From an uncultured Candidatus Peribacteria bacterium (lineage in GTDB: Bacteria > Patescibacteriota > Gracilibacteria > Peribacterales > Peribacteraceae), in NCBI GenBank assembly GCA_964488165.1, contig CAZATU010000003.1, positions 79,372 through 143,371 on the forward strand: 64,000 nucleotides of DNA. Reading direction: 5' to 3'. The notes below the pieces were generated by a model, which was given only the letters and a program-made list of their open reading frames with translations, ran no database searches and had not been told where the DNA came from. Of the stretch, positions 25,697-64,000 are shown one piece after another. Made by a program: the position numbers and the translations under genes. Each line of letters opens with the position of its first letter. The first letter of the stretch is position 1.

Positions 25697-28177
25697 ATGC
25701 AATTCCAGATTGCCGCAATCGCCGCTCTTGTCGCCGCCATCGTAGGCGGGGCCATCGGCATACTGCGCTTCCTGGCCGATCGCAAGCGCGAGGAGGACAT
25801 GGTGTGCCTGCAATTGCTCGTACCGAAGAAAGTGACGCGCGAGGAAAAGGATGAGGAGAGCGATCAGTACGGCAAGGACTTCAAGGAGGTCACGGGCGTG
25901 ATGGACCACCTCTTCCAATCGGCGCACAGCATTTGCGAGGGGTCGCTCTCGAGGCTCTGGAAGGGGCAACCGTTCTTCTCGCTCGAATACGCAGCGATGG
26001 AGGGAGAAATCCTCTTCTTCGCGGTGTGTCCACGCTCAATCGCGGCCACCCTCGAAAAGCATTTTACGTCGTTCTACCCGGAATGCCTCGTGGAAGAAGT
26101 CGAGGATTACAACATCTTCACTCCGCAGTCGGTCGTTGCCGCATGCACGCTCGCCCCCTCGGGGACCTATGAAAAAGTCTTCAAGACATACCAGCACATG
26201 AAGAGCGACCCGCTGAATGCCATCACCAACGCGTTCTCCAAGATCCGCAGGGACGAAGGCGCGGCCGTGCAGTTCGTGCTGCGCCCCCAAGTCGGCACCT
26301 GGCAGCACCGCGTGCAGAAGGAGGCGATCAACCTCCTCAATCCCAAAAAGAAACGTGGCAACGGTTCCATCTTCAACCCGCTCTACTGGGTACGCGCCGT
26401 CTTCGAGTTGATTACGGCCTCCGGCGACGTCGTCGATCTTTCGGCCCAAGACCAGCCCACGAGCGAACGTGTTTCCCAGATGCTTGAGGAATACAGCAAG
26501 GCGGTGGATGAAAAGGCGTCGACACCGGGCTTCCAGTGTACCGTGCGCATCGTGGCCTCAGCGCCCACCCAGGCACGCGCCGACGGCATTCTCGACGGCA
26601 TCGTGGGCTCCTTTGGCCAATTCACGGAAGTGCGCGGCAACGGCTTCCGCCGGGTGCGCTTCTCAAGCAAGCGCTCGATCATCGATCGCTACCTGCGCCG
26701 CACCCCCCATCGCACATTCCGTCAGCGCCTGCAGTTCCCGGCGATGCTGCTCGGTACAAACGAGCTCTCGAGCTTCTTCCATCTGCCGCACATCAAGTAC
26801 AACAAGGCCGACACGATCAAGTGGCAGAATTTCAAACTCGCCCCCGCCCCCAAGAATATTCCCGAGGAGGGCTTGTTCCTCGGCTACAACACCTACCGCG
26901 GCGAAAAACGGCTCGTCAAAATGCACAACGAGGATCGCTTCCGCCACTTCTACATCATCGGACAGACGGGTACGGGTAAATCCTCGATCCTCCAGCTCAT
27001 GGCACGCCAGGATTTCAGCCAGGGCAAGGGTGTGTGCGTGGTGGATCCGCACGGTTCACTCATCGACGACTTGATGCCGTATATCCCGCGCGAGCGCGCC
27101 GACGACGTCATCTACTTCAACCCGGCCGATACCGAGCGCCCGATGGGCTTGAACCTCCTCGAAGGCAAGTCCCCGGAGGAGCGCGACCTCATCGCCCTGG
27201 ACGCCATGAACATGATGGTGAAGATGTTCGGCGAGGAAGTGTTCGGCCCCCGCATCCAAGACTACTTCCGCAACGGGTGTCTCACGCTCATGGAAGACGA
27301 CGAAGAGGGCGGCGCCATCACCGACCTCGTGCGCCTCTTCACCGACGATGAATGGCAGAAGTACAAAGTTTCCAAGGTGAAAAACCCAATCGTAAAATCC
27401 TTTTGGACGAACCAAATGGCAAAAACCGGCCAGCGCGAGAAGCAGGAGATGATCCCCTACTTCGCCGCGAAGTTCGGACAGTTCTACACCAACACACTGA
27501 TGCGCAATATCGTCGGCCAGACGCGCAGCTCCTTCGACGTGGCACAGTGCATGAATGAAGGGAAGATCTTGCTGATGAACCTCTCGAAAGGTCTCATCGG
27601 CGACATCAACTCGACGCTGCTGGGCATGATCGTGGTCAACAAGATCCAAGTGGCCGCCATGCGCCGCCAGCGCGAGGACGTTTCGACCCGCAAGGATTTC
27701 TTCCTGTACATCGACGAATTCCAAAACTTCGTCACGCAATCCATCGAATCGATCCTCTCCGAGGCTCGCAAATACCGCCTCGGGCTGATCCTGGCGCACC
27801 AATACATCGACCAGCTGGAAAAGGAGAGCAAGCTGTCTGGCTCCGTGAGTCTCAAGGGCGCAATCTTCGGTAACGTCGGCTCCATGATGTTCTACAAAAT
27901 CGGCCCGCAGGACGCCGAAGTGGGCGCCAAGGAAATGGGGCCCGTCTTCAGCGAACAGGATCTCGTGAACATGGACAAGTTCAAGGGCGCCATGAAGCTC
28001 TGCATCGACGGCCAGCCCTCGCGCCCCTTCACAATCGAAGTACCGCGCCCCTGGCTCGACACCACTTACGTCAAGGACAGCCAGGCCGCCGAAGCGTTCA
28101 AGCAGCTCTCGCGCCTGAAGTACGGCAGGCAGAAAGATTTCGTCAGCCGCGAAATCCTGCGGCGCATCGGCGCGTAA
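25697..28177 (+). CDS. VirD4/TraD/TraG-like P-loop ATPase (type IV coupling-protein family) with N-terminal TM helix
   Basis: Walker A YIIGQTGTGKSSIL. GVCVVDPHGSL. Walker B FFLYIDEFQNF. ...GLILAHQYIDQL. N-terminal hydrophobic helix. Confidence 0.75.
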   Translation: MQFQIAAIAALVAAIVGGAIGILRFLADRKREEDMVCLQLLVPKKVTREEKDEESDQYGKDFKEVTGVMDHLFQSAHSICEGSLSRLWKGQPFFSLEYAAMEGEILFFAVCPRSIAATLEKHFTSFYPECLVEEVEDYNIFTPQSVVAACTLAPSGTYEKVFKTYQHMKSDPLNAITNAFSKIRRDEGAAVQFVLRPQVGTWQHRVQKEAINLLNPKKKRGNGSIFNPLYWVRAVFELITASGDVVDLSAQDQPTSERVSQMLEEYSKAVDEKASTPGFQCTVRIVASAPTQARADGILDGIVGSFGQFTEVRGNGFRRVRFSSKRSIIDRYLRRTPHRTFRQRLQFPAMLLGTNELSSFFHLPHIKYNKADTIKWQNFKLAPAPKNIPEEGLFLGYNTYRGEKRLVKMHNEDRFRHFYIIGQTGTGKSSILQLMARQDFSQGKGVCVVDPHGSLIDDLMPYIPRERADDVIYFNPADTERPMGLNLLEGKSPEERDLIALDAMNMMVKMFGEEVFGPRIQDYFRNGCLTLMEDDEEGGAITDLVRLFTDDEWQKYKVSKVKNPIVKSFWTNQMAKTGQREKQEMIPYFAAKFGQFYTNTLMRNIVGQTRSSFDVAQCMNEGKILLMNLSKGLIGDINSTLLGMIVVNKIQVAAMRRQREDVSTRKDFFLYIDEFQNFVTQSIESILSEARKYRLGLILAHQYIDQLEKESKLSGSVSLKGAIFGNVGSMMFYKIGPQDAEVGAKEMGPVFSEQDLVNMDKFKGAMKLCIDGQPSRPFTIEVPRPWLDTTYVKDSQAAEAFKQLSRLKYGRQKDFVSREILRRIGA

Positions 28178-47860: not shown

Positions 47861-50800
47861 TTACGCGAGTTCGTCGCGGGGGGGCATATCCGGCAGCGGA
47901 GGGCGGGTGCCCATGCGCGCCGTTCGGTCGCCTCCTTCCACGCCACTGCGGATCGCAGCGGGATCGAGGCCGGGCATTGTGCGCTTCACGGCTTCATCGG
48001 CAAGCACGTGGGCCTCGCCATACGTGTGTAGGGGCGAGCCATCGGGCTTCTTCTGGTCAAGGAAGTGCAGGAGGTAGAAGGAGTAGTACGAGCTTGCATC
48101 GCTCCAGTCGCCGCCCACTACGCCAGTAGCAATATTGGTGACGATCTCCTTGGTATGCACGATCATCGTGACGCGTCCGGTATGGGCGCTGGAAAGCTCG
48201 GTGTAGAGGTTGGTCCGGAGGTTCGCGGGGTCAAGACCACCGCTGTGGCAGGCGATGACGTCGAACGTGAAGCGGCAATCTGGGAAGGCATCTACAAGCC
48301 TGCCAACATCGGCGGGGCTTAAGGGGAACCGCGTTCTGCCGTCGGCGCTGGTAAACGACATACCCGTTGTGGAGCCGTGCACGCCAAGTGAAATGTAGAA
48401 ATCACGCACACCCTGGGCAGTCATGGCGCGCACACTCTCTTCCATCATCGCGTGAGGATCACGGTCGACGCCGCGCGCCGGCGCGCCGGAACTTACGAAC
48501 GTATGCCCACGGCCGGCGAGCATGCGCGGCATGTTCGTAATGTTGTTGCGAGTGATGTTCTGCTTGGCGTCGTAGAGGCCGATATAGCCAATGGGCCGAT
48601 CGCGAGGCAGGTCGAACGTGCGCATCCTTGCGCTGTCGGCGCGCTCGGAAGCGCGGATCGCCTCGCCACGACGCATGGCCTGCTCTACATCGGGCTTGAT
48701 GGCCGGGGTTCCGGTGGAAATATTGGTAAAGAGATCGCCCAAGTGCAGGCTGATCTGCGTCGACGGATCATCGGCGCGGCGCAACGTCACCTCGCTGCTA
48801 TCACCATCGTCGCCTCGGAGGTCCCAGGTGGAGAAGAGCCAACGCTGGGCAACGCCATCGACCGTGCGGGTAAACCCAAAGCATTCCCAGTCCGCTGCAC
48901 CAGCATTCTTGAATACCTCGATTGAGGTCGTGCCGCTGGTATAGCGCGGTGCGCGGGTGAAGCAGCGGTCGACGGATTGGTAGAAATTGAATTTGTCTTG
49001 GTTTGAGAGAGCCCTTCTGCGCAAAAGGAACAGCACCGAGCTGCGAGTATTGACTGAATTGGCTCCGCCTTCGGGCGTTTGCGTCGAGGCATCGTAGGTC
49101 ATCTGCCAGCCGCGGTAGCTCATGTGCACTTTGCGACCCTCGATGCGATGGCCCATGGTGCCCCAGGTGAGGGCATTAACGCGCTTGGCAAAGTCCTGGT
49201 CATCGGCGGAGGGGCCGATGGCATCGGCACCCGTCACATCGCCTGCGCTATACTCGGGAGGCCGCACCGGCGCAGTCTTCACGAATGTAAGCGCTCTACG
49301 TTGCTCGGCGGCAGGATCGGTAATGATCCTGTTGCCCTCTGCGGCACGATTACGAAGCAACGTACGCGACGTATCGTTGGCAGCAAGGGCGGTCAGCGCT
49401 GCGGGTGCTTCGAGCGTGTCGGCTACAGCAAGGCGCTGCTCCACCGTAGCGTTCTTGATGAGGTACGATGACCCGCTCGCCGGCACAATCGTGATGATGC
49501 CCATGAGTCGCGTTGCCGAGAACGGCGCAGGATCGGCATCGGGCAAGGCGATCGAACCGTTGGCTTGAATGGTGTAGCGCTTGGTTGTAGCGCCAACGGT
49601 GACATCGACAGTCACGGCTGCCGTCGCAGGATCGACTGAGAAGGTGGTTGCCCTGTTCTTGATGAGCCTTGGAGGCAAGCCCACAAGCGCTGCTGGGCGC
49701 ACGGCCTCAGGGGCGACATCGCGCGTCACGGCGGGGCTGCCGGCGGGCTGGAAGGTAAAGCGGCCGGGCGTGCGGGAGGTAAAGAGCACGGCGCCTCCTG
49801 CTCTACCGATGCTAAAGGGCAAAGTGGTGATATCCACGGCGCGGCCCCCCGTCTTGAGGCTGCCGTCTGCCAATACTTCATAGACAGTGGTCGTACCGTT
49901 GATGACTGCGGTAAAGGAGATCGGTGATGCGGGCGGCGCAACGCGGAATTCGTGGGTGCGGAAAATCGTCATCGCAGCCGGGAAGCCCTCGAAGCCGGCC
50001 GCTGGCGCGGTGGGCACGCGGTCGACTTCATCGCGGAACGCGCGCGCCGCAGCTTCGAGACGGTCTTTGACCGTGCTGTTCGGCTCGAGCACGTTGAACG
50101 AGCGCGTGGTGCCCCTGTAGGTAAGGGCGACGCTGCGGGGAGGCGTGATGGCAAAGGTCATGCCCGCGGGCAACACAGCGGAAGCCACTGCGGCTTCGAA
50201 GCTGCCGGGCGGGGCCTCTGGGGCGTTGAGCGAAATGCCCGCGGCGATGATGGCATTCGTGTAGGTCGTTTCGAGTGCGGCACCCGAATCAGGCTCCGCG
50301 CCCACGGGGGCCAGGTTGATATCGACGGTGCGGGTGACGCCCGTCTTGCTCATGCGGACAAGGGTGTAGCTCGGGTACGCCTTGGTGATGCTGCCCGGGA
50401 GCGTCACTCTCGACCATGCCCGCTCAAAGCCCCTGCGGCGCTGCAGCTCCCTTGCCGACATCGTGAGGAAGGGCGTGATGGCAACGGCGGTGGTGAGGCC
50501 GGGAGCAATCGGGACCGTGCGCGTGAGGCCGTCAAACGACAATGTCACATCGCGCCCGGCGACCGTCACGATCGAAACACCTGCGGGCAACACGATGCCG
50601 CGGACCATGGCTTCGAAGCCGGGAGCGGTTGTTTCTGCAATGGTACGACGTACGGTCTGCGTGCCGACCTGGAAGGCGAATGTGCCGTTTTGGGTGCAGG
50701 TGATGGTGAGGGCTCCATCGCGGCGGGTGACCGTGAACGGCGCGCCGCCCGCAGGAACGATGGCGCCCGCAGCGTTGATCACGAACGGCCGGGCATCCGC

Positions 50801-51628
50801 GCCTTCCCCAAAGATGATGGTCATGGGCGACGTGGGCGGCGTGACGGTGACGGTAAAAGCGGTGTTGCGCTCGATGCGCTCGGGGATGCCGCGCATGGCA
50901 TCGGGAGTCTCGGGCGAAGAGCCCGGCGTCTCGCCGCTGACAAAGCGCGCCACCTGGTCTTCTAAGTACCTGGCGACGGTGTCGGGACGCTGGCCGCTCA
51001 ATGGAATCACATGCGTGCGGCCGTTCAACTGCACCGTCACCTGCATGGTCTGGTCGTTGAGCAAGACGCCCATCTGCGGGTTGCGCAGCGTGAGGCTCGT
51101 CATGGTCGTGCGCACGTTCTGGAGGAGCAGCATGCGCTCCTGCCCGCCCTCGGGGGCGGAGCCGGGAGGCGTCATGCCCGGGTAGGGAGAGGCGCCGGGA
51201 GGCGCGTACCACATCCACGGGCTGGGGTAGGCGTAGCTCTGGTTGGCATACGGGTACATGCCCGACGTATCGAAGGTACCGTTGGGCCACGTACCGTTCA
51301 TCGCCGGATAGTTCTGCAGGTTGTAGACCATCCCGTAATAGTTCTGCTGGATGCCCTGCATCATGTTGGCGTACACGCCCTGCATCTGCGGCCACATCTG
51401 CTGCTGCATCTGCGGGTACTGGTTGAACATGGGCTGCATCCGGTGCGACATCTGCGCGAAGGTGTTGCACATCTGCAGGCAGAACGCGGCGAAGCCGTCG
51501 ACGTTGAGATCAAGCTGTTGGGGGGCTTCGGTCGTCTGCTGCACAGCCTCGGGAGGCGTGGGCACGGCACCGCTTTCCGGAGGAGCGGATTGCCACAGAA
51601 GCCGGCGTTCGGAGAAACGATGCGACAT
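47861..51628 (-). CDS. Giant protein, paralog 1: ERRLL N-motif, Q/M/Y/P low-complexity region, beta-rich repeats, C-terminal caspase-fold (metacaspase/orthocaspase-like) domain
   Basis: Start trimmed to MSHRFSERRLLWQS. The C-terminal region FYISLGVHGSTTG-(x34)-FTFDVIACHSGGL has His at 48377-48379 and Cys at 48248-48250. No signal peptide or TM. Confidence 0.85.
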   Translation of the reverse strand: MSHRFSERRLLWQSAPPESGAVPTPPEAVQQTTEAPQQLDLNVDGFAAFCLQMCNTFAQMSHRMQPMFNQYPQMQQQMWPQMQGVYANMMQGIQQNYYGMVYNLQNYPAMNGTWPNGTFDTSGMYPYANQSYAYPSPWMWYAPPGASPYPGMTPPGSAPEGGQERMLLLQNVRTTMTSLTLRNPQMGVLLNDQTMQVTVQLNGRTHVIPLSGQRPDTVARYLEDQVARFVSGETPGSSPETPDAMRGIPERIERNTAFTVTVTPPTSPMTIIFGEGADARPFVINAAGAIVPAGGAPFTVTRRDGALTITCTQNGTFAFQVGTQTVRRTIAETTAPGFEAMVRGIVLPAGVSIVTVAGRDVTLSFDGLTRTVPIAPGLTTAVAITPFLTMSARELQRRRGFERAWSRVTLPGSITKAYPSYTLVRMSKTGVTRTVDINLAPVGAEPDSGAALETTYTNAIIAAGISLNAPEAPPGSFEAAVASAVLPAGMTFAITPPRSVALTYRGTTRSFNVLEPNSTVKDRLEAAARAFRDEVDRVPTAPAAGFEGFPAAMTIFRTHEFRVAPPASPISFTAVINGTTTVYEVLADGSLKTGGRAVDITTLPFSIGRAGGAVLFTSRTPGRFTFQPAGSPAVTRDVAPEAVRPAALVGLPPRLIKNRATTFSVDPATAAVTVDVTVGATTKRYTIQANGSIALPDADPAPFSATRLMGIITIVPASGSSYLIKNATVEQRLAVADTLEAPAALTALAANDTSRTLLRNRAAEGNRIITDPAAEQRRALTFVKTAPVRPPEYSAGDVTGADAIGPSADDQDFAKRVNALTWGTMGHRIEGRKVHMSYRGWQMTYDASTQTPEGGANSVNTRSSVLFLLRRRALSNQDKFNFYQSVDRCFTRAPRYTSGTTSIEVFKNAGAADWECFGFTRTVDGVAQRWLFSTWDLRGDDGDSSEVTLRRADDPSTQISLHLGDLFTNISTGTPAIKPDVEQAMRRGEAIRASERADSARMRTFDLPRDRPIGYIGLYDAKQNITRNNITNMPRMLAGRGHTFVSSGAPARGVDRDPHAMMEESVRAMTAQGVRDFYISLGVHGSTTGMSFTSADGRTRFPLSPADVGRLVDAFPDCRFTFDVIACHSGGLDPANLRTNLYTELSSAHTGRVTMIVHTKEIVTNIATGVVGGDWSDASSYYSFYLLHFLDQKKPDGSPLHTYGEAHVLADEAVKRTMPGLDPAAIRSGVEGGDRTARMGTRPPLPDMPPRDELA

Positions 51629-51629
51629 G

Positions 51630-51905
51630 CTATGCGTCGAAATTGGGAAGCGGCTCACTCTGACGTTCCTGTTCTTCCTTGCAGCTGCGGCCGAGCTTCT
51701 CCCCTTTCTTCACGAGCTGGTCCATGGAATCGATCCCCTCTTGCACGACGCGTGCGTGCGCATCAAGACCATCACGGAGGAGCTGGGTGATGCTGATGCG
51801 ATCAATTTCCTTCAGACGATCGCTGGCATCGGCAAGCGCCTGACGCACCGGAGGCGGCAGGAGAGGCATGGCCAGCACGAAGGCGCGGAAGGTGGCGGAG
51901 TCCAT
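51630..51905 (-). CDS. Small helical protein (91 aa), partner of giant paralog 1
   Basis: MDSATFRAFVLAMPLLPPPVRQALADASDRL... The TAG stop lies 1 nt before the giant's ATG. Clear paralog of 54613..54894. Confidence 0.75.
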   Translation of the reverse strand: MDSATFRAFVLAMPLLPPPVRQALADASDRLKEIDRISITQLLRDGLDAHARVVQEGIDSMDQLVKKGEKLGRSCKEEQERQSEPLPNFDA

Positions 51906-51919
51906 GTGTGTTTCTCGCC

Positions 51920-51948
51920 ACTATAGCAAAAAAGCCCGATTGAAGCAA
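51920..51948 (-). promoter_or_regulatory. Sigma70-like promoter candidate, module 1
   Basis: Minus strand: TTGCTT (51948-51943), 17-nt spacer ending ...TGC, TATAGT (51925-51920). Only 14 nt to ATG 51905. Confidence 0.5.
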
Positions 51949-51979: not shown

Positions 51980-54616
51980 TTACGCGCTTGCGCCGGGCGA
52001 GATGCCCGGAGGCAGAGGAGGATGCGCATCGGAGCGCGCCGTGCGCTCGCCGCCTGCAACACCGCTGCGGATGACCGCCGGATCAAGACCAGGCAACGTC
52101 CTTTTGATCGCCTCGTCAGCCAGGAGATGCGCTTCGCCATACGTATACAGAGGAGAGCCATCGGGCTTTTTCTGATCGAGGTAATGCAAGAGGAAGAACG
52201 TGTAGAACGACGTAGCATCGCTCCAATCGCGTCCGCCATTGCGAATCCCGGTGGCGATATTATTGACGATTTGCTTCGTGTGGACGAACACGGTCACGCG
52301 CCCGGCGTGCGCACTGGAAAGCTCGGTATAGAGGTTCGTACCAAGATTTGGCGCATCCAGGCCGCCGGTATGGCAAGCGATAACATCGAAAGTGAAGCGA
52401 CAATCCGGATGCGCATCCACCAGCGTGCCAATCTGCTCGGGCGTGAGCGGATAGCGCTCCGAGCCGTCCCTGAACGCCATACCCGTCATGGAGCCATGGA
52501 CCCCGAGGGAAATATAGAAATCATGCACTCCGCTGCGATACAGTTCCGTCACCCGCTCTTCCATCATGGCCAACGGAGCGCGGTTCACGGGCGTGGCGAC
52601 GTCGCCGGATGTCACGAACGTATGCCCTCTGCTCGCGAGCATGCGCGGCATATCGGTCATCGTGTTCTTCGTCATATTCTCATTGCGATCATAGAGTCCG
52701 ATATACCCAATGGGCCGATCGCGCGGGAGCTCGAACGTGCGTATCCGTGCGGCATCGGCCCGCTCCGAAGCACGGATTGCCTCCGCACGACGCATGGCTT
52801 GCTCCACTTCGGCCTTAATGGCCGGCATTCCAGCCTCAATGTTGGTGAACATGTTCTGGAGCTCCACATTGATTTGCGTCGAGGGATCATCGGCGCGACG
52901 CAGTGTGATACTGCCTTCGACGCCTTGCGCACTGCGCGTTGTAAATACGGAAGCGAACCAGCGCTGTGTGACGCCATTGACGGTGCGGGTACATCCGAAA
53001 TGCTCCCAGTCATTCGCCTTGGCATCCTTGAAGACTTCGACGGTCGTGCCAGCGTCGCTCCATCGCGTTGCCCCTGTGAAGCAGCGATCAAGCGATTGGT
53101 AATAATCGAATTTCTCCTGCGTTCCCAAGGATCTGCCACGAGCAATGAAGAGGGCATCAAGCTCCTCTCTGACCAGTGCTGCCGCGGCTGCAGGCGTTTT
53201 GCCTGCCGTGTCACACGTTCGCATCCAACCTCGGTAGCTCATATGAACAAGGCGCCCTTCAATGCGATGCTTCATCGTACTTCCCCATGGCAACGCATTC
53301 ACGAGCTTTCCAAATTCCTGATCGGCAGCTGAGTCGCCTATGGCATCGGCGCCCGTAACATCGCCTTCGCGATATTCGTCAAGCACGAAGGGCTTCTTTC
53401 GCTGCAAGCGAAAGAGATCCTGCTGATCGAAGAGTGGCTTGGTGAGCAGCTGATCGCCCCGCTGCGCTCGCAACCTCAGCGCATCACGCGATTCTTGATT
53501 GGCTGTAAGGAGCGTGAGGCCCTTTGGCACGACGACAGTATCGGCAACGGCAATACGCGACTCCGCCGCGCCGTTCTTCAACGCATACAATGTACCGCTC
53601 TTCGGCGTGATCGTGATCGCGCCCAGCAGACGGGTGACAGTGAATGGCGCAAGAGTGTCATCAGGGGTGGCGATCGTACCGTTTGCCTGGATTGCATAGC
53701 GCTTGGTGGCGTCACCATCGGTGACATCGACCGTGACGGGCGCATCGGCCGGATCGATGGAGAACGTGCTCGGCTGGTTCCTGATGAAACGCGACGGCAA
53801 AGCAACGAATGCCGACGGACGACGAGGCTCCGGAGCAACGTCACGCGTAATGGGAGCTTCTGCACCGGAGCGGAACGTAAAACGCCCGGCGACGCGCGAT
53901 GCAAACGCTACGGCGCCTCCGGCGCGACCCAGGCTGAACGGCAATGCTGCAATATCCACTGCCTTGCCACCCGTCTTGAGTAGGCCATCGGCACCAAGGT
54001 CGTAGACGGTGCTGACGCCGCCGATGAGCGTCGTGCATGCCAGTGGCGCAGCAGCAGGCACCATGCGGAACGTGGATGCTCCGAAGATCCTCATCGCTTC
54101 AGGAAAATCCTCAAAGCCTCCGGAAGGAGCATCTGCAACGCGCTCCGGCTCACCTTTCGTCTGCACAGCGCCATCTGCGTCCGCGCCAACCGCAGACGTG
54201 CCGCCCGGCGACGGCGTATACCACGTCTCCGGCTGTGGGTAGGCGTCGCTCTGGCCACCATGAGGATATGTACTCGCCGAGCTGACGACATCGTTGGGCC
54301 AGGCGCCGTTCATGGCGGAGTACTTCTGGATTGCCTGAAGCATCCCGTCATAGTTCTGCTCAATGCCCTCCGTCATGGTGGCGTAGACCCCCTGGATCTG
54401 CGGCCAGAGCTGCTGCTGCATAGCCTCGGGATAGCGCTTGAACATAGGCTCGAATGCATGTGTGGCCTGCGAAAACGTGTTCACAAGCTCCGGAGAGGAA
54501 TCTCCGGCATCCTGCATGGCGGCCGGCATTCCTTCAGGAGTGGCGGCAGGCTCGCGTGCCTGTTCGGGGTTGGTAGCCTGGTTCAGAAGCCGTCGTTCGC
54601 GAAGGCTCGCGATCAT
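51980..54616 (-). CDS. Giant protein, paralog 2 (same architecture, shorter repeat region)
   Basis: MIASLRERRLLNQA..., ...FYISLGVHGSMTG-(x34)-FTFDVIACHTGGL (Cys at 52373-52375). Collinear with paralog 1 over its C-terminal ~700 aa. Confidence 0.85.
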   Translation of the reverse strand: MIASLRERRLLNQATNPEQAREPAATPEGMPAAMQDAGDSSPELVNTFSQATHAFEPMFKRYPEAMQQQLWPQIQGVYATMTEGIEQNYDGMLQAIQKYSAMNGAWPNDVVSSASTYPHGGQSDAYPQPETWYTPSPGGTSAVGADADGAVQTKGEPERVADAPSGGFEDFPEAMRIFGASTFRMVPAAAPLACTTLIGGVSTVYDLGADGLLKTGGKAVDIAALPFSLGRAGGAVAFASRVAGRFTFRSGAEAPITRDVAPEPRRPSAFVALPSRFIRNQPSTFSIDPADAPVTVDVTDGDATKRYAIQANGTIATPDDTLAPFTVTRLLGAITITPKSGTLYALKNGAAESRIAVADTVVVPKGLTLLTANQESRDALRLRAQRGDQLLTKPLFDQQDLFRLQRKKPFVLDEYREGDVTGADAIGDSAADQEFGKLVNALPWGSTMKHRIEGRLVHMSYRGWMRTCDTAGKTPAAAAALVREELDALFIARGRSLGTQEKFDYYQSLDRCFTGATRWSDAGTTVEVFKDAKANDWEHFGCTRTVNGVTQRWFASVFTTRSAQGVEGSITLRRADDPSTQINVELQNMFTNIEAGMPAIKAEVEQAMRRAEAIRASERADAARIRTFELPRDRPIGYIGLYDRNENMTKNTMTDMPRMLASRGHTFVTSGDVATPVNRAPLAMMEERVTELYRSGVHDFYISLGVHGSMTGMAFRDGSERYPLTPEQIGTLVDAHPDCRFTFDVIACHTGGLDAPNLGTNLYTELSSAHAGRVTVFVHTKQIVNNIATGIRNGGRDWSDATSFYTFFLLHYLDQKKPDGSPLYTYGEAHLLADEAIKRTLPGLDPAVIRSGVAGGERTARSDAHPPLPPGISPGASA

Positions 54617-54894
54617 GCGGCGGAAGAAAAGTCGGGTAGAGCTTCCGACGAACGCTCGCTCTGCTCATCCAATGCACGCATCATTTTGCCGCCCTTCTTC
54701 ACGAGCTCTTCGATCTGCCTGATGCCCTCATGCAGCAGGCTTGCATGTTGTTCCAGTCCTTTGCGCAGAATCCGGACGATGGCGATGCGATCAGACTCCT
54801 GAAAACGCTCACCGGCGTCTGCGAGCGCCTCACGTACCGCGGGCGGCAGCAAGGGCATGGCGAGCACGTACGCGCGGAAGCTGGCGAGATCCAT
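54613..54894 (-). CDS. Small helical protein (93 aa), partner of giant paralog 2
   Basis: MDLASFRAYVLAMPLLPPAVREALADAGERF... ATGA overlap with the giant's start. Confidence 0.75.
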   Translation of the reverse strand: MDLASFRAYVLAMPLLPPAVREALADAGERFQESDRIAIVRILRKGLEQHASLLHEGIRQIEELVKKGGKMMRALDEQSERSSEALPDFSSAA

Positions 54895-54908
54895 AGGGGT
54901 TTCCCCTA

Positions 54909-54937
54909 ATCATAGCAAAAAGCGCCAAATTCCTCAA
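54909..54937 (-). promoter_or_regulatory. Sigma70-like promoter candidate, module 2
   Basis: Minus strand: TTGAGG (54937-54932), 17-nt spacer ending ...TGC, TATGAT (54914-54909). 14 nt to ATG 54894. The spacer 3' half (gc.tttttgc) is shared with the module 1 promoter. Confidence 0.5.
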
Positions 54938-57236: not shown

Positions 57237-58355
57237 TCACGCTTTGGCCGCCTTGATCATGGCCAGAAATTCGTCGAAGAGGAACGCGGCATCCTCGGGT
57301 CCAGGAGAGGCTTCGGGGTGGAACTGCACGGCGCGGAAACGATCGCTCTCGTGGCGAATACCTTCCACCGTGCCGTCATTGGCGTTACGGAACCACACCG
57401 ACCAGCCCTTGGGCAGCTCTTCATTGACGGCGAAGCCGTGGTTTTGCGAGGTGATGAGGCAGCGCTTGGACGGAACGCAGACGCCTTCGCGACACTCGTG
57501 CATGAGACACGGTTGGTTGGCTCCGCGATGGCCGTACTTCAACTTGTAGGTGTCGCTGCCGATGGCCAACGCCATCAGCTGGTTGCCTAGGCAAATACCG
57601 AAGGTGGGGATGTCGCGCTCGATCGCCCGCTTGATGGAGCGAATCGTGGGCACGCATTGCTTCGGGTCTCCGGGCCCGTTGCTGATGAAGACGCCGTCGA
57701 TGGCGCCGACGTGCTTGTCGATGTCGTAATCCCAGGGGACACGGACGATGCGCGCGCCGCGCTTGAGCAAGCTGCGGAGAATGTTGCGCTTCATGCCGCA
57801 GTCGTAGGCAAGGATCGTGGGGGCGTCGGGCAAATTGCCGGGGGGTTCGTACGTCAGCACTTCGCCGCAGCTCACTTCAGCGACAAGGTTCTGCAGATTT
57901 GGATCGGGCACCGTGCCGAGCACGGCATCGTCCTTCTGTGCGATGCGCCCGAGCATCACCCCATGCTCGCGGAGCCGCTTGGTGAGCGCACGGGTATCGA
58001 CGCCGGAAATGCCGGGGATCTTGTGGTGTTCGAGCCAGTTGTGGAGGGAGCTCACCGACGCTTGGTGGCTCTTGAAGCGGCTCTCCTGAGCAACGACAAC
58101 GCCGCGCACGTGCACGGCCTCGCTTTCGAGCAACGCGGAAAACCCTCGCGCATCACGCTCCTCGCTCGGGATGCCGTAGTTGCCGATGAGTGGAAACGTG
58201 AACACGAGGATCTGCCCGCGGAAGCTGGGGTCCGTGAGGCTTTCGGGGTACCCCACCATGTTCGTCGTAAAAACCACCTCGCCATGGGCATCGTTTTCGG
58301 CACCGAATGATGCACCGGAATACGTCGTGCCGTCATGCAGGAGAAGCTTCGCCAT
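57237..58355 (-). CDS. carA: Carbamoyl-phosphate synthase small (glutaminase) subunit
   Basis: ...PTFGICLGNQLMALA...HRGANQP...SQNHGFAV...VQFHPEASPGP. Start trimmed to MAKLLLHDG. Confidence 0.92.
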   Translation of the reverse strand: MAKLLLHDGTTYSGASFGAENDAHGEVVFTTNMVGYPESLTDPSFRGQILVFTFPLIGNYGIPSEERDARGFSALLESEAVHVRGVVVAQESRFKSHQASVSSLHNWLEHHKIPGISGVDTRALTKRLREHGVMLGRIAQKDDAVLGTVPDPNLQNLVAEVSCGEVLTYEPPGNLPDAPTILAYDCGMKRNILRSLLKRGARIVRVPWDYDIDKHVGAIDGVFISNGPGDPKQCVPTIRSIKRAIERDIPTFGICLGNQLMALAIGSDTYKLKYGHRGANQPCLMHECREGVCVPSKRCLITSQNHGFAVNEELPKGWSVWFRNANDGTVEGIRHESDRFRAVQFHPEASPGPEDAAFLFDEFLAMIKAAKA

Positions 58356-58414
58356 GGTGCAAATCTGCAGCATGGTAGCGTCGCCACTCGAGGATGACCA
58401 AGCATTTCCGGTGT

Positions 58415-60532
58415 TTACACCACGTCGGAGCCAGCAGACAGACCGTCAGGGCGGAAGCTCGCCGTTTCGACGCCGCCGGTGGGTGTGGTGCGGAAGACGC
58501 CGGCGTCGAGGCCGGGCCACGCGCGTTTGGTGGCTTCGTCGGCGGCGACATGAGCCTGGCCGTACGTCATGCCCTGGTTCAAGAAATGCACGAGGTAGTA
58601 GTCGTAGGGCGTATCGAAGTTGCGGCTGCGGCTGCCGTCGGGGTTCCTCGTTCTGCTGTCGGTGGTCCGGATGGGGTTCGGGAGCTCGGGCTTGGTCTGG
58701 ATGAAGACGCTGATGCGTCCGGACTCTCCGGCAGCTCGGAATTGCTCCGCCATGCGCCCGCTTTGGAAACCGCCGCTGTTGCAGCAGTTCATGCGCAGCA
58801 CGAAGCGGCAATCGTTGTACTTGCTCTTCTTGAACAAGTTCATGAGCTGGCTCGGCTCCAAATCAATCCTGCCTCCGCCGGGGATACCAAATCCTACACT
58901 CGTAGTATCGCCGTGGACGGAGAAATACAGATAGTGATTCTTGATACCGGCGCGGTAGGCAGCATCGAAACGCGACTCGAGGGTGCCAAGCAAGTCCCTA
59001 CCCGCGGCAAAGGTGTCGTTGCCGCCGCCAACCATGTTGTAGCCACGGCTGCCGAGGAATGAGCCGAAGTTGCGGGCATGGTTCTCCTCGGTGGGATCGG
59101 TCTGATCGAAGACACCCGTGTAGAGGATCGACTCGCCACGCGGGAGATCGAAGTTCCGGACGTTTGCGGCGTCGTTGGTCTCGCTCGCGCGGCGTTTGCG
59201 CGCAACTTGCAATGCTTCCTTGATGGCAGAGCCGTTAAGACCGGGTGATGCCAAGAAGGTTCTCGTAAGACCTGCAGCCTGCATGAGCATATCTGAGGCA
59301 TTCTGGAACACGATATTTTGTTCCATGACATGGTTGGTGACGGCCGCTGCAACGTACCAACGTTCGGTCGTACCACCATGATTGACTTCGATAGCGTACC
59401 TGCGGCCATGCTCCGGAGGATTGACGCGCTTGAGCGTGACACCATCGGAAGTACGATCGATACTGGCATCCAATCTGGTCCGAACACTGGAATCGTAGTC
59501 ATTGGCCATTTGCCGGTACACCGAGTTCGGATCTTCGGCAGTGGTACGCACCCAATCGAGACGTGTTTGAATGAAGGACCGTGCCGTCTCGGAATATTCG
59601 ACGCGATTGTAACCGGCACCTGGCGCGACGTCGGGGCCGCGCGGCATTGCGCCAGGCGGCGTTACTCCGGGGCTTGCCGAACCCGACACGGTAATGTCCT
59701 GCCACTGGTAGGGGTTGCGCTCCATTTGATCCTTCCAGCCCACGGAGAAAAGCCCCGGCCGGGTGAATTCGAAGCGGAATGTATGGATATCGCCGAAACG
59801 CGTGGGGCGCACGCGCACGCCGGCCGCCGCTAGAAGCGCGTTGCCGTTTGCCGGCTCCACACTGAGCGTGCGGCTGTTCACGTACACCGATTGCTGCACG
59901 CCACCGGTGCCCGGGAGTTTGACGGCAACAAGGGAGGTGGCATTCAGAATTTCCGTGGAAGCGAGCACGCCGCCGGGCGTCACCTCGGGAGCGCCGGGGG
60001 GTGGACCATAGGGAGGCGCATACGGGTTCGACGGCGGGCCACCATACGGCGCATACGGGTTCGACGGCGGGCCGGATTGCGACGAAGAGCCGGGTCTCCT
60101 GGGCCGCTGGGGGACTCGGCGGCCACCAGGAATGAAAGGCGAATTCGAAGGGTCGGACTGCGGCATGCCGTTGTAATACGGCGGCATGTACTGCGCGTAG
60201 GGATTCGCCTGCTGGCCGTATTGGCCGTAGTACATGTGGGGATATTGCTGGTTGCCCTGCTGCATGCCCGGGTAGCCACTCATCCCCTGCTGCTGCATGA
60301 ACATGTACATCGAGGCATCCACACCCTGGGAGCCGTACTGCTGATACACATTCTGGTAGCCGGGTGAGGCATAGAACTGATTCACGTATTTGAGCGCTTC
60401 CTGGACGCCGGATTCGATGTCGCGCGGCGTTTCACCGGCTCCCTCGGGGGGCGTCGGTCTGTTCTCGGGAGCGGCATGCTGCGCAAGCAGGCGACGTTCC
60501 GCGGCCGTCGAGAAAGCGATGCGGTGGTTCAT
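58415..60532 (-). CDS. Giant protein, paralog 3 (divergent): ERRLL N-motif, Q/Y/G/M/P low-complexity region, C-terminal caspase-fold domain
   Basis: Start trimmed to MNHRIAFSTAAERRLLAQH. ...HYLYFSVHGDTTSVG-(x32)-RFVLRMNCCNSGG (Cys codons at 58781-58786). It shares NFDLPRG... and YGQAHVAADEATKRAWPGLD with paralogs 1 and 2. Confidence 0.8.
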   Translation of the reverse strand: MNHRIAFSTAAERRLLAQHAAPENRPTPPEGAGETPRDIESGVQEALKYVNQFYASPGYQNVYQQYGSQGVDASMYMFMQQQGMSGYPGMQQGNQQYPHMYYGQYGQQANPYAQYMPPYYNGMPQSDPSNSPFIPGGRRVPQRPRRPGSSSQSGPPSNPYAPYGGPPSNPYAPPYGPPPGAPEVTPGGVLASTEILNATSLVAVKLPGTGGVQQSVYVNSRTLSVEPANGNALLAAAGVRVRPTRFGDIHTFRFEFTRPGLFSVGWKDQMERNPYQWQDITVSGSASPGVTPPGAMPRGPDVAPGAGYNRVEYSETARSFIQTRLDWVRTTAEDPNSVYRQMANDYDSSVRTRLDASIDRTSDGVTLKRVNPPEHGRRYAIEVNHGGTTERWYVAAAVTNHVMEQNIVFQNASDMLMQAAGLTRTFLASPGLNGSAIKEALQVARKRRASETNDAANVRNFDLPRGESILYTGVFDQTDPTEENHARNFGSFLGSRGYNMVGGGNDTFAAGRDLLGTLESRFDAAYRAGIKNHYLYFSVHGDTTSVGFGIPGGGRIDLEPSQLMNLFKKSKYNDCRFVLRMNCCNSGGFQSGRMAEQFRAAGESGRISVFIQTKPELPNPIRTTDSRTRNPDGSRSRNFDTPYDYYLVHFLNQGMTYGQAHVAADEATKRAWPGLDAGVFRTTPTGGVETASFRPDGLSAGSDVV

Positions 60533-60885
60533 ACAGACATGCGGGAAGAAGCGGCGTCGGCACCCAGAAGTTCGTCGGCCATTTTGAGCTGCCACACCCG
60601 CTCCCCTTCTTCTTTCGTGACGCGATCATTGCGCCGGTGCGTCTGGATTTCCTGCGCCTGCACATAGAGATAGCCGCTGAATTCCTTGAGCAGATCGCCG
60701 AACGTGCGGAAGGCCCTCCCGTAACGCTCCATACGCAGCCCGTGCTCCTCGGCCGTTTCACCTTTGTACTCCATGTCGAGGTACGGTAAACGGGCGCTGG
60801 TGAGCTCCGGCTCAATCACCGACATGAATCGGTCGTAAATCCACTCCGGGGGAGGCAAGCCTTGTGGGTTTGGTGTGGAAGGCAT
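60529..60885 (-). CDS. Small protein (118 aa), partner of giant paralog 3
   Basis: ATGA overlap with the giant's start. At most a weak resemblance of its charged C-terminal part to the 91/93-aa partners. Confidence 0.65.
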   Translation of the reverse strand: MPSTPNPQGLPPPEWIYDRFMSVIEPELTSARLPYLDMEYKGETAEEHGLRMERYGRAFRTFGDLLKEFSGYLYVQAQEIQTHRRNDRVTKEEGERVWQLKMADELLGADAASSRMSV

Positions 60886-61797: not shown

Positions 61798-63999
61798 TTA
61801 TTGGAAATAGGGCGGATATCCGCCTGGGCCGGGAGGCAGGATGCCTTCCGGCGAGCCGCTGGGAGTGCCCGGGTACCCGCCGTAGGGCGAGGTTCCCGGC
61901 AGCATGCCCGGCGGATACTGCCCCGGAGCACCGGGGAAGTTGCCATAGGACGGCGGGCCTGAAGGACGCATACCACCGTAGGGCAGAGTGCCCGGAATCA
62001 CGCGCGGCGCACCGGGCCGGGTGCCGTAGGGTGCCATGCCCGGACCCATGCCGGGGTAGCCGCTGGGTCCTTGCGGCATACCCGGATAGCCGGGCCGCCC
62101 CTGGGGCATACCAGGCATCCCGGGCATACCGCCGTAGGAGGGTGGGCGCGGCGCGGACATGCCGCCGCCACGATTGTGGACGATCTGGTTCCAATCGAAA
62201 TCCCCGAAACCGATGAACGCATGTTGGGCGTTGCCGCCCTGAATGGTATTGGTGACGATGGCCGAGATGCCGCCGCCGCGTGCAGCCACCTCGCGGGCGC
62301 GACCCTGCGCTTCGGGCGGCATGCCCTGGGTACTGGTGAGTTCCCAGTCGACGCCGCTGCGACCGCCGCCGCTCCAGATGGATTGCATGGCTTCGGCAGG
62401 ATTGCGATAGACGCGCGGCACTCGTTGGAACCCGCCGGTGTCGATCTTGCAGAGGATGTATCCCCCGTTCGACGAACGTTCCAGATAGGCGCACACGTAG
62501 TGACCGGGGGTGGCGCGAGCGACGATGTTGCTGATGCCCGCGGCATCCAGAAGGCTGCTCGCGAGCACGGCGAAGTCCTCGCAGTCGCCGGTGGCGCGCA
62601 TGAGCGATTCTTCGGCCGACTGGATGTACTGCTGGCCCGCAGCCTCCGCTTCGAAGTTCACGGTGGAAGCCGTACGAATGCGGTTGCCGGTGCGCGTGAT
62701 GCTGTCTTCGACGGTGAAGTACGATGACACGAACGCGCCGATCGCCTCGGGCGAACCAAGCTGTCGACCCATTTGCTGGAGCATCTGGCGTGCATGATCC
62801 GGGCTCTGCGGACGTTGATTGAGAGACACGGGGCCACCTTCGCCGACGACGTGCATGCCGTGAGGAAGCTGGATCGGGGCGCCTGTGCCGTCGGCACCGG
62901 CGGACACGGACGCCTGCTGGCCGTTGATGCGCACGAGCGCGGGGCGATCGGTGCGGCCGTCGTAGAACACGGTCGCCACAGGGGTGGAACTGCCGTTAAA
63001 GATTTCGCGCACGGTGCGGCCGTCCTGCAGCTCCACGACGCGCGCACTGCCGCCGGGGCCCTGGATGCGGAATTCATCGCCGCGCGCAGTGGTGCCCCAG
63101 GTGACCTGACTTCCATCGGAGCCCTGCCAGGAGCCGCTGCCGACGCGGACGGGTCCGCGGCCGACGAGCGTCTGCGTCCGCGTGACGACCACCGCCTGGC
63201 CCGACGCACCCTCCGCCCAGATGCGCATGCCGTCACTCATGACGCGCATGGGGCCCATCGACTGGATCGCCATGGTGAGGCGTTGTGCCATGTTCTGGAG
63301 CTCCGCGCCGTGCTCCGCGAGGCGGGACGGCGGAATGTTGTGGCGCAGATGGAACGTGCCGCTCACGCCTTGCACCTCGATGCGCTGCCCAGCGACGGAG
63401 AGTTGCTGAAGGACATTCATGATGTACTGACCGTTGAGCTGCTGCTCCTGTGCGTCCCACTCCACGCTCACGTTGGTATTCGAGGGCGTCGGGCCCATGT
63501 TGGGTGGAGCTCCGTACGGAGCTCCCGGAACTCGGCCCATCTGCGGATATCCGCCCTGGTACATGCCGGGACGGTTGATGTTCACCTGCGGCATGTTGCC
63601 CCAGGCGCTCGGAAGGCCGGGGTACATGCCGGGATTCAATGCATGCGCGTACGGGCGGGCAGGGGCCAGGTACGGGCTACCCGGCTGCGGAAACTGGAAC
63701 TGCCGTCCGTAGTTCATCTGCTGGAAGCGCACCTGCGGAGGCACGCCGTGGTTGGAGGTGACGTGATGCATGGGGCCGCCGGGCCGGTGCGAGCTGAAGA
63801 GCTGCGGCGCGCCGCCGTTGAATGACTGAATCGCAAAGCGCTGGTCGGGGCTGCCCCACACCGGTCCGCTCGCCTGGTGCGGAATGGCCGACGGCCAGCC
63901 GCCAAGCTGCGGTTGCGACGGCATGCCCGGCATGACGAAGGGCGACGTGCGCATGGTCGTTGGGCCCATCTGGGGGCCCATCTGCGACCAGGAGTTCAT
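61798..63999 (-). CDS. P/G/Y/M/Q-rich protein with transglutaminase-like Cys-His-Asp core (may extend beyond window end)
   Basis: ...MRATGDCEDFAVLASSLLDAAGISNIVARATPGHYVCAYLERSSNGGYILCKIDTGG. Cys at 62581-62583, His at 62500-62502, Asp at 62440-62442. Flanked by GMPGMPGMPQGRPGYPGMPQG...GGYPPYFQ and an N-terminal P/Q/G/M-rich region. The ATG at 63997-63999 is 1 nt from the window edge. Confidence 0.8.
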   Translation of the reverse strand: MNSWSQMGPQMGPTTMRTSPFVMPGMPSQPQLGGWPSAIPHQASGPVWGSPDQRFAIQSFNGGAPQLFSSHRPGGPMHHVTSNHGVPPQVRFQQMNYGRQFQFPQPGSPYLAPARPYAHALNPGMYPGLPSAWGNMPQVNINRPGMYQGGYPQMGRVPGAPYGAPPNMGPTPSNTNVSVEWDAQEQQLNGQYIMNVLQQLSVAGQRIEVQGVSGTFHLRHNIPPSRLAEHGAELQNMAQRLTMAIQSMGPMRVMSDGMRIWAEGASGQAVVVTRTQTLVGRGPVRVGSGSWQGSDGSQVTWGTTARGDEFRIQGPGGSARVVELQDGRTVREIFNGSSTPVATVFYDGRTDRPALVRINGQQASVSAGADGTGAPIQLPHGMHVVGEGGPVSLNQRPQSPDHARQMLQQMGRQLGSPEAIGAFVSSYFTVEDSITRTGNRIRTASTVNFEAEAAGQQYIQSAEESLMRATGDCEDFAVLASSLLDAAGISNIVARATPGHYVCAYLERSSNGGYILCKIDTGGFQRVPRVYRNPAEAMQSIWSGGGRSGVDWELTSTQGMPPEAQGRAREVAARGGGISAIVTNTIQGGNAQHAFIGFGDFDWNQIVHNRGGGMSAPRPPSYGGMPGMPGMPQGRPGYPGMPQGPSGYPGMGPGMAPYGTRPGAPRVIPGTLPYGGMRPSGPPSYGNFPGAPGQYPPGMLPGTSPYGGYPGTPSGSPEGILPPGPGGYPPYFQ

Positions 64000-64000
64000 A

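Follow-up and report, generated by a model that had tools for sequence, protein, structure and literature searches.

Why should large proteins that differ almost throughout their lengths begin with the same short peptide? This question is raised by a 64,000-nucleotide stretch of DNA from an uncultured Candidatus Peribacteria bacterium (hereafter the window), which spans C3:79372-143371 of a 1.23-Mb genome that is 99.8% complete. It encodes three large proteins, G1 through G3, that carry the motif ERRLLxQ near their N-termini. Judged from sequence comparisons, this motif is a local, paralogue-specific form of an E-x-R-L-Phi element, here termed the head, that is found across the Peribacteraceae (the name used here for one family of the Peribacteria lineage of ultra-small candidate phyla radiation, or CPR, bacteria). 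We tentatively favour a reading in which the head serves polymorphic cargo as a lineage-specific recognition handle that a small partner protein reads, probably for non-classical export.

An N-terminal motif shared by three large proteins

A six-frame scan of the window detected four occurrences of ERRLL, three of which lie in N-termini encoded on the minus strand, namely those of G1 (51596-51610; MSHRFSERRLLWQS), G2 (54584-54598; MIASLRERRLLNQA) and G3 (60485-60499; MNHRIAFSTAAERRLLAQH). G1 (1255 aa, 47861..51628, minus strand) is a cargo protein with a caspase-fold C-terminal domain, and its head-bearing paralogues G2 (878 aa, 51980..54616) and G3 (705 aa, 58415..60532) are encoded on the same strand. 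The core reads E-R-R-L-L-W-Q in G1 (51590..51610; residues 7-13 from the ATG at 51628), E-R-R-L-L-N-Q in G2 (54578..54598; residues 7-13) and E-R-R-L-L-A-Q in G3 (60479..60499; residues 12-18), again on the minus strand, which bears out the motif that a first-pass annotation of this DNA had reported. The G1 head, comprising the preface MSHRFS, the core and the first part of a Pro/Glu-rich spacer, occupies 51563..51628 of the minus strand. A GTG at 51658, 10 codons upstream, is an alternative start for G1; the motif is translated from either start, and the His/Phe/Ser-rich preface resulting from the GTG may be the more typical of the two.

Each large gene directly follows a small gene on the minus strand. 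S1 (91 aa, 51630..51905) is a small helical protein of a rare family with the tail LPxF, S2 (93 aa, 54613..54894) is its paralogue, and S3 (118 aa, 60529..60885) is a small helical partner with the signature YDxxMxxIEPEL...GET.E...R..RY..AF that belongs to a family we call type-A. The TAG stop of S1 is separated by 1 nt from the ATG of G1, and the S2/G2 and S3/G3 junctions are both ATGA overlaps, in agreement with the earlier description of a motif encoded directly after a coupled junction. None of these six proteins (G1-G3 and S1-S3) yields a Pfam or NCBIfam match at threshold. The C-terminal domains of G1 and G2 are 69-70% identical and point to a recent tandem duplication. The motif codons of G1, G2 and G3 differ synonymously (CGC/CGA/CGT, CGG/CGG/CGC, CTT/CTT/CTG, CTG/CTG/CTT and CAA/CAG/CAG), and therefore the constraint acts on the protein, as selection on the peptide, and not on the RNA.

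Sequence comparisons place the motif in a family-wide head

When 46 complete downstream proteins of 165-1767 aa were aligned with MAFFT, a procedure independent of the regular-expression motif search, they were found to share only 9-19% identity. The sole conserved columns of this alignment form an N-terminal HxxFxxxxxExRL pattern in which the Glu is invariant and the Arg is conserved in at least 90% of the proteins. The head generally consists of about 10-15 His/Phe/Arg/Ser-rich residues, followed by [R/K/A]-E-x-R-L-[L/I/V/C]-[F/H/R]-x and then by an acidic, flexible spacer rich in Ala, Glu and Pro. In a profile of 70 sequences, the distance from Met to Glu is 9-19 residues in most cases (median 14). 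Upstream of the Glu (position 0), H is found at -12, F/H/L/R at -11 to -7, S at -3, F/L/I at -2 and R/A/K/S at -1. Downstream, the profile has H/R/A/Q/S/K at +1, R at +2 (69/70), L at +3 (51/70), L/I/V/C at +4, F/R/H at +5 and F/M/Q at +6, after which the Ala/Glu/Pro/Asp-rich acidic spacer begins.

The counts at +1 in these 70 sequences are H 22, R 13, A 10, Q 8, S 6 and K 5, and neither the second Arg nor the Gln of ERRLLxQ is conserved family-wide. Therefore, the earlier description of an invariant ERRLLxQ is accurate for the paralogues in the window, but it captures only their specific form of an E-x-R-L-Phi core in which x can be H, R, A, Q, K or S.

The check on homologues proposed with the first-pass annotation came out in favour of the motif. 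The G3 orthologues P0003 and P0004 (54% identity) retain STAAERRLL while the next ~200 residues are unrelated, and P0157 (31% identity) carries VRERRLCFNE. Homologues of the caspase domain include L158 (VQEKRLLSNQ, with a type-A gene upstream), L160 (HAERRLLRQH) and L166 (GERRLLFVQ). All such homologues with a visible N-terminus carry the head, with two exceptions: L159, which has no clear head, and L162 (G227:C1:139205-140002 region; 27% identity, E 1.6e-18), in which an N-terminus resembling a transmembrane (TM) segment or signal peptide (GLIAGVKAALVSVVLLATP / RRGSGLIAGVKAALVSVVLLATPG) replaces the head. Non-self homologues number at least three for G3 and at least one for the G2 C-terminal domain, counts that are affected by low-complexity words saturating the candidates.

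Type-A genes predict a head on the next protein

The S3-like type-A proteins are recognised by the signature YDxxMxxIEP[DE]L...GET.E...R..RY..AF. A profile built from five of them detected the family in 23/23 sampled genomes of the window's own family (17 genera) and in 0/178 genomes from other families of the class. A search of 1.84 billion representatives recovered 923 type-A clusters at 50% identity (E<=1e-3); among the matches listed, lengths range from ~90 to 235 aa and are mostly 105-140 aa, and no Pfam entry was matched at threshold. A degenerate DNA pattern for YDxxMxxIEP[DE]L yielded 118 further loci, mostly in metagenome-assembled genomes of Peribacteria.

In the first type-A search (23 genomes, 17 genera), the head begins the next open reading frame (ORF) at 22 of 30 loci. 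The association was then counted for 79 small genes that were validated by a hidden Markov model (HMM) and have a downstream ORF, using a strict head definition (E.R[LIVMRE][LIVCMA] within the first 32 residues) as well as a loose pattern. The downstream ORF carries the head in 58 of the 79 cases by the strict definition and in 70 by the loose one. Background frequencies are 2.1% among own-genome ORFs and 3.8% among the remaining ORFs of the same loci, which corresponds to an enrichment of 20-35 fold after a type-A gene. Moreover, 26 of 70 type-A/head junctions are ATGA overlaps. The relation is asymmetric: a type-A gene almost always predicts a downstream head, and a head needs no type-A gene in cis. 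Thus, the link between motif and small partner gene that had been drawn from the window alone extends to 58-70 of 79 type-A genes, but the small partner is in fact two families between which no homology is detectable, and about half of the head bearers in this genome lack a type-A gene in cis.

The two components also differ in charge. The head is mildly basic (mean net charge +1.6, 8% His, 14% aromatic residues), whereas the small partner is acidic with a median charge of -5, making the two complementary.

Type-A proteins have a conserved C-terminal tail, L-x-x-[LI]-E-S-x-[FILM]-S-(S/A), located 3-6 residues from the stop and present in 47 of 73 by a strict pattern. It is encoded directly before the head of the large protein, and in S3 it corresponds to window positions 60529-60570. 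Tail and head together may constitute a bipartite signal. At one locus (L004, G072:C2:72957-77416), a 4.5-kb stretch contains three type-A genes, including a directly adjacent tandem pair, and some modules may use two small proteins.

Unrelated cargoes share only the head

Few of the 46 aligned cargoes resemble known domains. Pfam matches are limited to DUF4116 in two, TGL in one, and three further single weak matches (Snapin_Pallidin, ATPase_2 and Tropomyosin; E 5e-4 to 9e-4), and a PHROGs search for a phage origin returned 0 matches. Many cargoes contain Q/M/Y/P/G-rich or coiled-coil regions. Only 8/61 family genomes encode the caspase-fold domain seen in G1-G3. Head bearers are also poor in Cys (median 0.14%, compared with 1.48% in the long ORFs of the genome, of which only 5.5% have <=0.3%).

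The cargo can change at a given site. Next to carA (window 57237-60885), the position occupied here by the 705-aa G3 holds an unrelated 1767-aa protein in L156 and no large gene in L003 and L079. A constant N-terminal module, variable C-termini and a swap of cargo at a roughly syntenic locus are among the features by which polymorphic toxins and effectors, in the Zhang-Aravind sense, are recognised, and these are present here. Likewise, the gene of a small acidic protein adjoins, and is translated together with, cargo whose members have nothing but the N-terminal region in common, which is the generic arrangement of an effector with its chaperone. The genes downstream of the cargo are heterogeneous and include housekeeping genes. 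In G170, carA comes straight after the small gene, which suggests cargo loss.

Head bearers in the window's own genome

A whole-genome scan identified five further bearers: B4 (503 aa, ASLRERRLVLF), B5 (1227 aa, LTHREARLCHQ), B6 (692 aa, ASLREHRMARM; just past the window end), B7 (372 aa, RIHREARLLSQ) and B8 (417 aa, MRASARERRLVFQ). Each of B4 to B7 is preceded by an S3 homologue (phmmer E 1e-17 to 2e-3). Ranking the 16,553 own-genome ORFs with a head HMM derived exclusively from other genomes placed B6, G1, G3, B8 and B4 as the top five, with G1 second. The same HMM recovers B5 and G2 together with three further N-terminal cases that have no upstream partner (MHDDIHPLVCRPHGMLLAEHRMARF, MHKSPAFGEHRLSTF and MHIDFDPSGREARLLHL), for a total of about 11 head bearers in this genome.

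Predicted structures of the small partner and the head

Ten loci have the small-gene stop in frame with the large-gene start and can be treated as natural read-through fusions. These were aligned with 62 small proteins, and 60 unpaired N-terminal fragments were left out of the resulting multiple sequence alignment (MSA). Two fusions were modelled with AlphaFold2, each consisting of the small protein, a linker (2 residues for L088; 11 residues including Pro for L089) and the first 70 residues of the large protein. The type-A partner is predicted with a predicted local distance difference test (pLDDT) score >90 as two short helices, which hold the YDxxMxxIEPEL segment, and one ~65-residue helix. 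This single long helix suggests that the type-A partner would act as an oligomer. A Foldseek comparison of the fusion model with the PDB gave nothing below E = 5.

Export signals and secretion machinery

The first-pass annotation had excluded a Sec or twin-arginine translocation (Tat) signal, a judgement that the following findings uphold. The motif in G1-G3 is followed by a Pro/Glu-rich stretch and not by a hydrophobic h-region, and across bearers an N-terminus rich in His/Phe/Arg/Ser gives way to an acidic segment. The hydrophobic core of a Sec n-h-c signal is missing, with no window of 19 residues attaining a Kyte-Doolittle value >=1.6 near the N-terminus; a marginal hydrophobic window occurs in only 2/54 proteins, far from the N-terminus. 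A Tat signal was rejected on account of the variable position before the Arg, the missing h-region and the lack of TatC, for which PF00902 had no match in this 99.8%-complete genome (the control search matches 11/14 reference genomes).

Kinship with type VII secretion systems (T7SSs) was also considered and rejected. Sub-threshold matches to EsxA, WXG100 and YwqH proteins (E 0.01-0.5) obtained with a 5-sequence profile vanish with a 72-sequence type-A profile, which finds no EsxA in the PDB. In the own genome, WXG100 (PF06013) is absent, and a search for an EssC/EccC multi-domain ATPase with PF01580 exceeded the cut-off once only, for an 847-aa single-domain FtsK.

The window does encode a TrwB/VirD4-type ATPase of 826 aa (25697-28177), and a 926-aa paralogue lies at C2:131488-134265, which brings the VirD4/TraG-like ATPases of the genome to two or more. 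At 45-78% identity, the VirD4-like ATPase was recovered from 201/201 class genomes, compared with 23/201 for the type-A family. By this distribution it is a class-wide core gene and not an accessory remnant of conjugation. Homologues of type IV coupling proteins (T4CPs) occur widely in Patescibacteria, in most cases with their genes apart from virB4; the type IV secretion systems (T4SSs) of these bacteria are likewise widespread, apparently repurposed away from conjugation and of unknown substrates, and their parts are divergent in Gracilibacteria (PMC12102498). In many genomes of the class, the VirD4-like gene contains 2-39 in-frame TGA codons, while none occur in the window's own family; such a pattern would fit a recoding of UGA in some members of the class.

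A candidate recognition handle and its alternatives

Because the head is the only feature shared by the cargoes, type-A is their only shared neighbour and both have the same narrow phyletic range, a handle read by the small protein is the simplest explanation. The head would serve as a common handle by which unrelated large, soluble, Cys-poor and mostly 'dark matter' cargoes are recognised. Its most likely reader is the acidic, helical type-A protein usually encoded directly upstream, and translational coupling would let this protein capture the head as it emerges from the ribosome. Coupled translation could allow recognition in cis, or one of several type-A paralogues could act in trans. The type-A protein would be an adaptor or chaperone that most probably passes its cargo to a non-Sec, non-Tat route of export or delivery. 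The binding of the head by the small protein, export as the outcome and the involvement of a translocon are all inferred. Sorting of effectors is favoured over a housekeeping complex because TM segments and signal peptides are absent, because the cargo is polymorphic and swapped at a roughly syntenic site, because the cargoes include caspase-fold and TGL domains, because they are depleted in Cys, and because a membrane or signal N-terminus takes the place of the head in L162. A bolder form of this proposal, in which head and type-A protein make up the substrate-recognition layer of an undescribed delivery pathway that is independent of Sec, Tat and T7SS and might run via a repurposed T4SS or another machine, is possible but doubtful.

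Several findings weigh against a handle read by the type-A partner for export. Six of the ~11 bearers in the own genome lack a type-A gene in cis, namely G1 and G2 (which follow S1 and S2 instead), B8 and the three others without any upstream partner; in addition, no small gene precedes the G3 orthologue on L031, a 21.8-kb metagenome contig. Bearers without type-A in cis would therefore need to be recognised in trans, unless a different reader is involved. The suggestion that the motif docks onto the partner gained nothing from the fusion models, in which the motif is left unstructured (first model, pLDDT ~51-67; second model, ~54) and docking is not seen, although this is a weak test given a head MSA of 10 sequences, modelling as a monomer and the lack of predicted aligned error values. 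The suggestion that the motif is an export tag served by the VirD4-like ATPase fared no better: the ATPase is class-wide and the tag is restricted to one family, a distribution that provides no specific link between them and lends no support to this ATPase as a specific exporter. VirB4 (PF03135) was not detected in the own genome, and the neighbourhoods of the modules hold housekeeping genes only, with no recurring machine and no translocon. Finally, Cys depletion is also expected of disordered, low-complexity proteins.

The same observations bear on the alternatives. If the head were solely a handle for assembly inside the cell, by co-translational hetero-oligomerisation with a small coiled-coil protein that provides solubility, a scaffold or a condensate, then no export would be involved and the lack of secretion machinery nearby would be expected. 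The coupled junctions, the predicted 65-residue helix of the partner, which suggests an oligomeric coiled coil, and the many Q/M/Y/P/G-rich or coiled-coil cargoes would all suit such a role. Nevertheless, we consider it unlikely, since the protease-like and transglutaminase-type cargoes and their diversity are typical of delivered effectors, L162 bears a TM/signal-like N-terminus where the head would be, and the AlphaFold2 models lack docking here as well. The strong Cys depletion also fits exported proteins, being compatible with those of monoderm bacteria.

Heads on proteins without type-A in cis would alternatively be explained by a self-sufficient export or targeting signal that is read by a membrane machine (a divergent T4SS or coupling ATPases), with the small protein as a co-substrate or accessory. 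This is in keeping with the two or more encoded VirD4/TraG-like ATPases, with the conserved tail of the small protein as a possible second signal, and with the widespread, repurposed T4SSs of Patescibacteria, whose substrates are unknown (PMC12102498). We judge it quite unlikely given the mismatch between a coupling ATPase in 201/201 class genomes and a tag in one family, and the lack of a VirB4 match to PF03135 in the own genome. Known T4SS signals, moreover, are mostly C-terminal. We give only a slim chance to the processing site put forward by the first-pass annotation, in which a protease would cut at or near E-x-R|L to remove a His/Phe-rich propeptide, in a PEXEL-like manner or as simple propeptide removal. 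A near-invariant Arg followed by Leu at a fixed distance from the N-terminus would fit such a site, as would the caspase fold of three bearers, whose metacaspase relatives cleave after Arg/Lys. However, the preface preceding the putative cut also has a conserved character, and the modules have no co-occurring protease that could be a candidate. The caspase-fold domain, found in 8/61 family genomes against 23/23 of those sampled for the tag system, cannot be a general tag-processing enzyme. Practically no weight is left for a feature of the nucleic acid or of chance, whether through an RNA element at the coupled junction or because the large genes duplicated recently. Although G1 and G2 are indeed recent tandem duplicates, this explanation is refuted for practical purposes by the synonymous codon differences, the occurrence of the motif on unrelated proteins in 17+ genera, as in the 46-protein alignment, and the enrichment over background.

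Relation to known systems

Chaperone-based modules for sorting effectors include the class I chaperones of type III secretion systems (T3SSs), prePAAR/Eag, LXG/Lap and VirE1/VirE2. The T3SS class I chaperones follow the same logic as that proposed here, in which a chaperone and an N-terminal signal sort effectors. Effectors with prePAAR in type VI secretion systems (T6SSs) reportedly function with Eag (DUF1795) chaperones, and they resemble the present modules in having a short N-terminal motif on polymorphic effectors, a small dedicated chaperone encoded directly upstream and unrelated cargo domains. They differ in that the genome studied here has no T6SS, the bearers lack PAAR and TM helices, and the motif sequence is not the same; furthermore, the small protein here is helical with no detectable similarity to entries of Pfam or the PDB, and the organism is a monoderm-like CPR bacterium.

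The WXG100, LXG/Lap and PE-PPE proteins of T7SSs are similar in that helical proteins of ~100 aa are co-transcribed with larger substrates that have no Sec signal, share only their N-terminal region and have variable, in some cases low-complexity, C-terminal domains. However, the shared region here is a linear head of ~25 residues and not a helical domain of 100-200 aa, and type-A is predicted to form a long helix with a small head rather than the helix-turn-helix hairpin of WXG100. The Agrobacterium T4SS pair VirE1-VirE2 also involves a small acidic helical chaperone encoded directly upstream of its substrate, and VirD4-like ATPases are present in both cases, but there is no sequence similarity, and no specific T4CP link was found here. 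The export signal of VirE2 is C-terminal, and VirE1 contacts an extensive internal region of its substrate instead of a linear motif at the N-terminus.

A resemblance of logic only is seen with Plasmodium PEXEL (RxLxE/Q/D) and oomycete RxLR-dEER, in which an N-proximal Arg-Leu motif defines a large, lineage-specific polymorphic repertoire and renders an 'effectorome' predictable. Both motifs come after a Sec signal peptide and function in the secretory pathway of eukaryotes, whereas the heads described here have no signal peptide and occur in a bacterium. The local ERRLL also resembles the Tat consensus S/T-R-R-x-F-L, but in the family the first Arg is mostly replaced by H/A/Q/K/S, with no h-region and no TatC. 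The sorting logic is known. Pfam, NCBIfam, PHROGs, the PDB, PMC4736985 and PMC12102498 describe neither the motif nor the partner family nor the lineage. Exported proteins are treated in PMC4736985 only as those of Sec type, plus sortase, type II secretion and type IV pili.

CPR/Patescibacteria are thought to live on other cells, and the proteins they deliver and the routes used are almost unknown. A tag recognisable in sequence on 'dark matter' proteins, including caspase-fold and TGL proteins, allows a candidate effector or surface repertoire to be listed for each Peribacteraceae genome. If the delivery pathway exists, about 1% of the proteome would be a predictable polymorphic effector repertoire aimed at host cells or the cell surface, and the export reading would be of real value for CPR biology. 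If it instead acts within the cell, the system would nonetheless represent a novel case in which low-complexity proteins prone to aggregation carry a chaperone handle. The large partner family defined here, with its >900 clusters at 50% identity, is uncatalogued and lacks a Pfam entry.

Other features of the modules

S1 and S2 represent a second kind of small partner. A relationship to type-A as divergent members was rejected, as no homology is detectable (hhalign probability 0.3%). Their family, with the tail E-x-L-P-x-F, is found in only 3/61 family genomes, and in G210 and G111 genes of this type precede helical proteins that have no head. No Shine-Dalgarno sequence is present before S1 and S2, nor before the large genes. 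Near-identical promoter-like stretches, TTTTTGCTATAGT (51906-51935) and TTTTTGCTATGAT (54895-54925), are located ~14 nt before the ATG codons of S1 and S2.

Modules also occur in clusters. The first (window 61798-64000 together with C3:143579-146271) includes S6, B6, a transglutaminase-like protein without a head, a 283-aa protein, S3 and G3, an arrangement in which the S6-B6 and S3-G3 modules flank two untagged genes; the C-terminus of B6 is M/G/P-rich. The second cluster (C1:359886-369458) contains the S5-B5 and S4-B4 modules, a tRNA-like stretch and a head-bearing ORF of ~750 aa without a partner. Within it, B5 carries five tandem repeats of ~105 aa with the pattern TESGxxLDFRxxxGKWEFKA.

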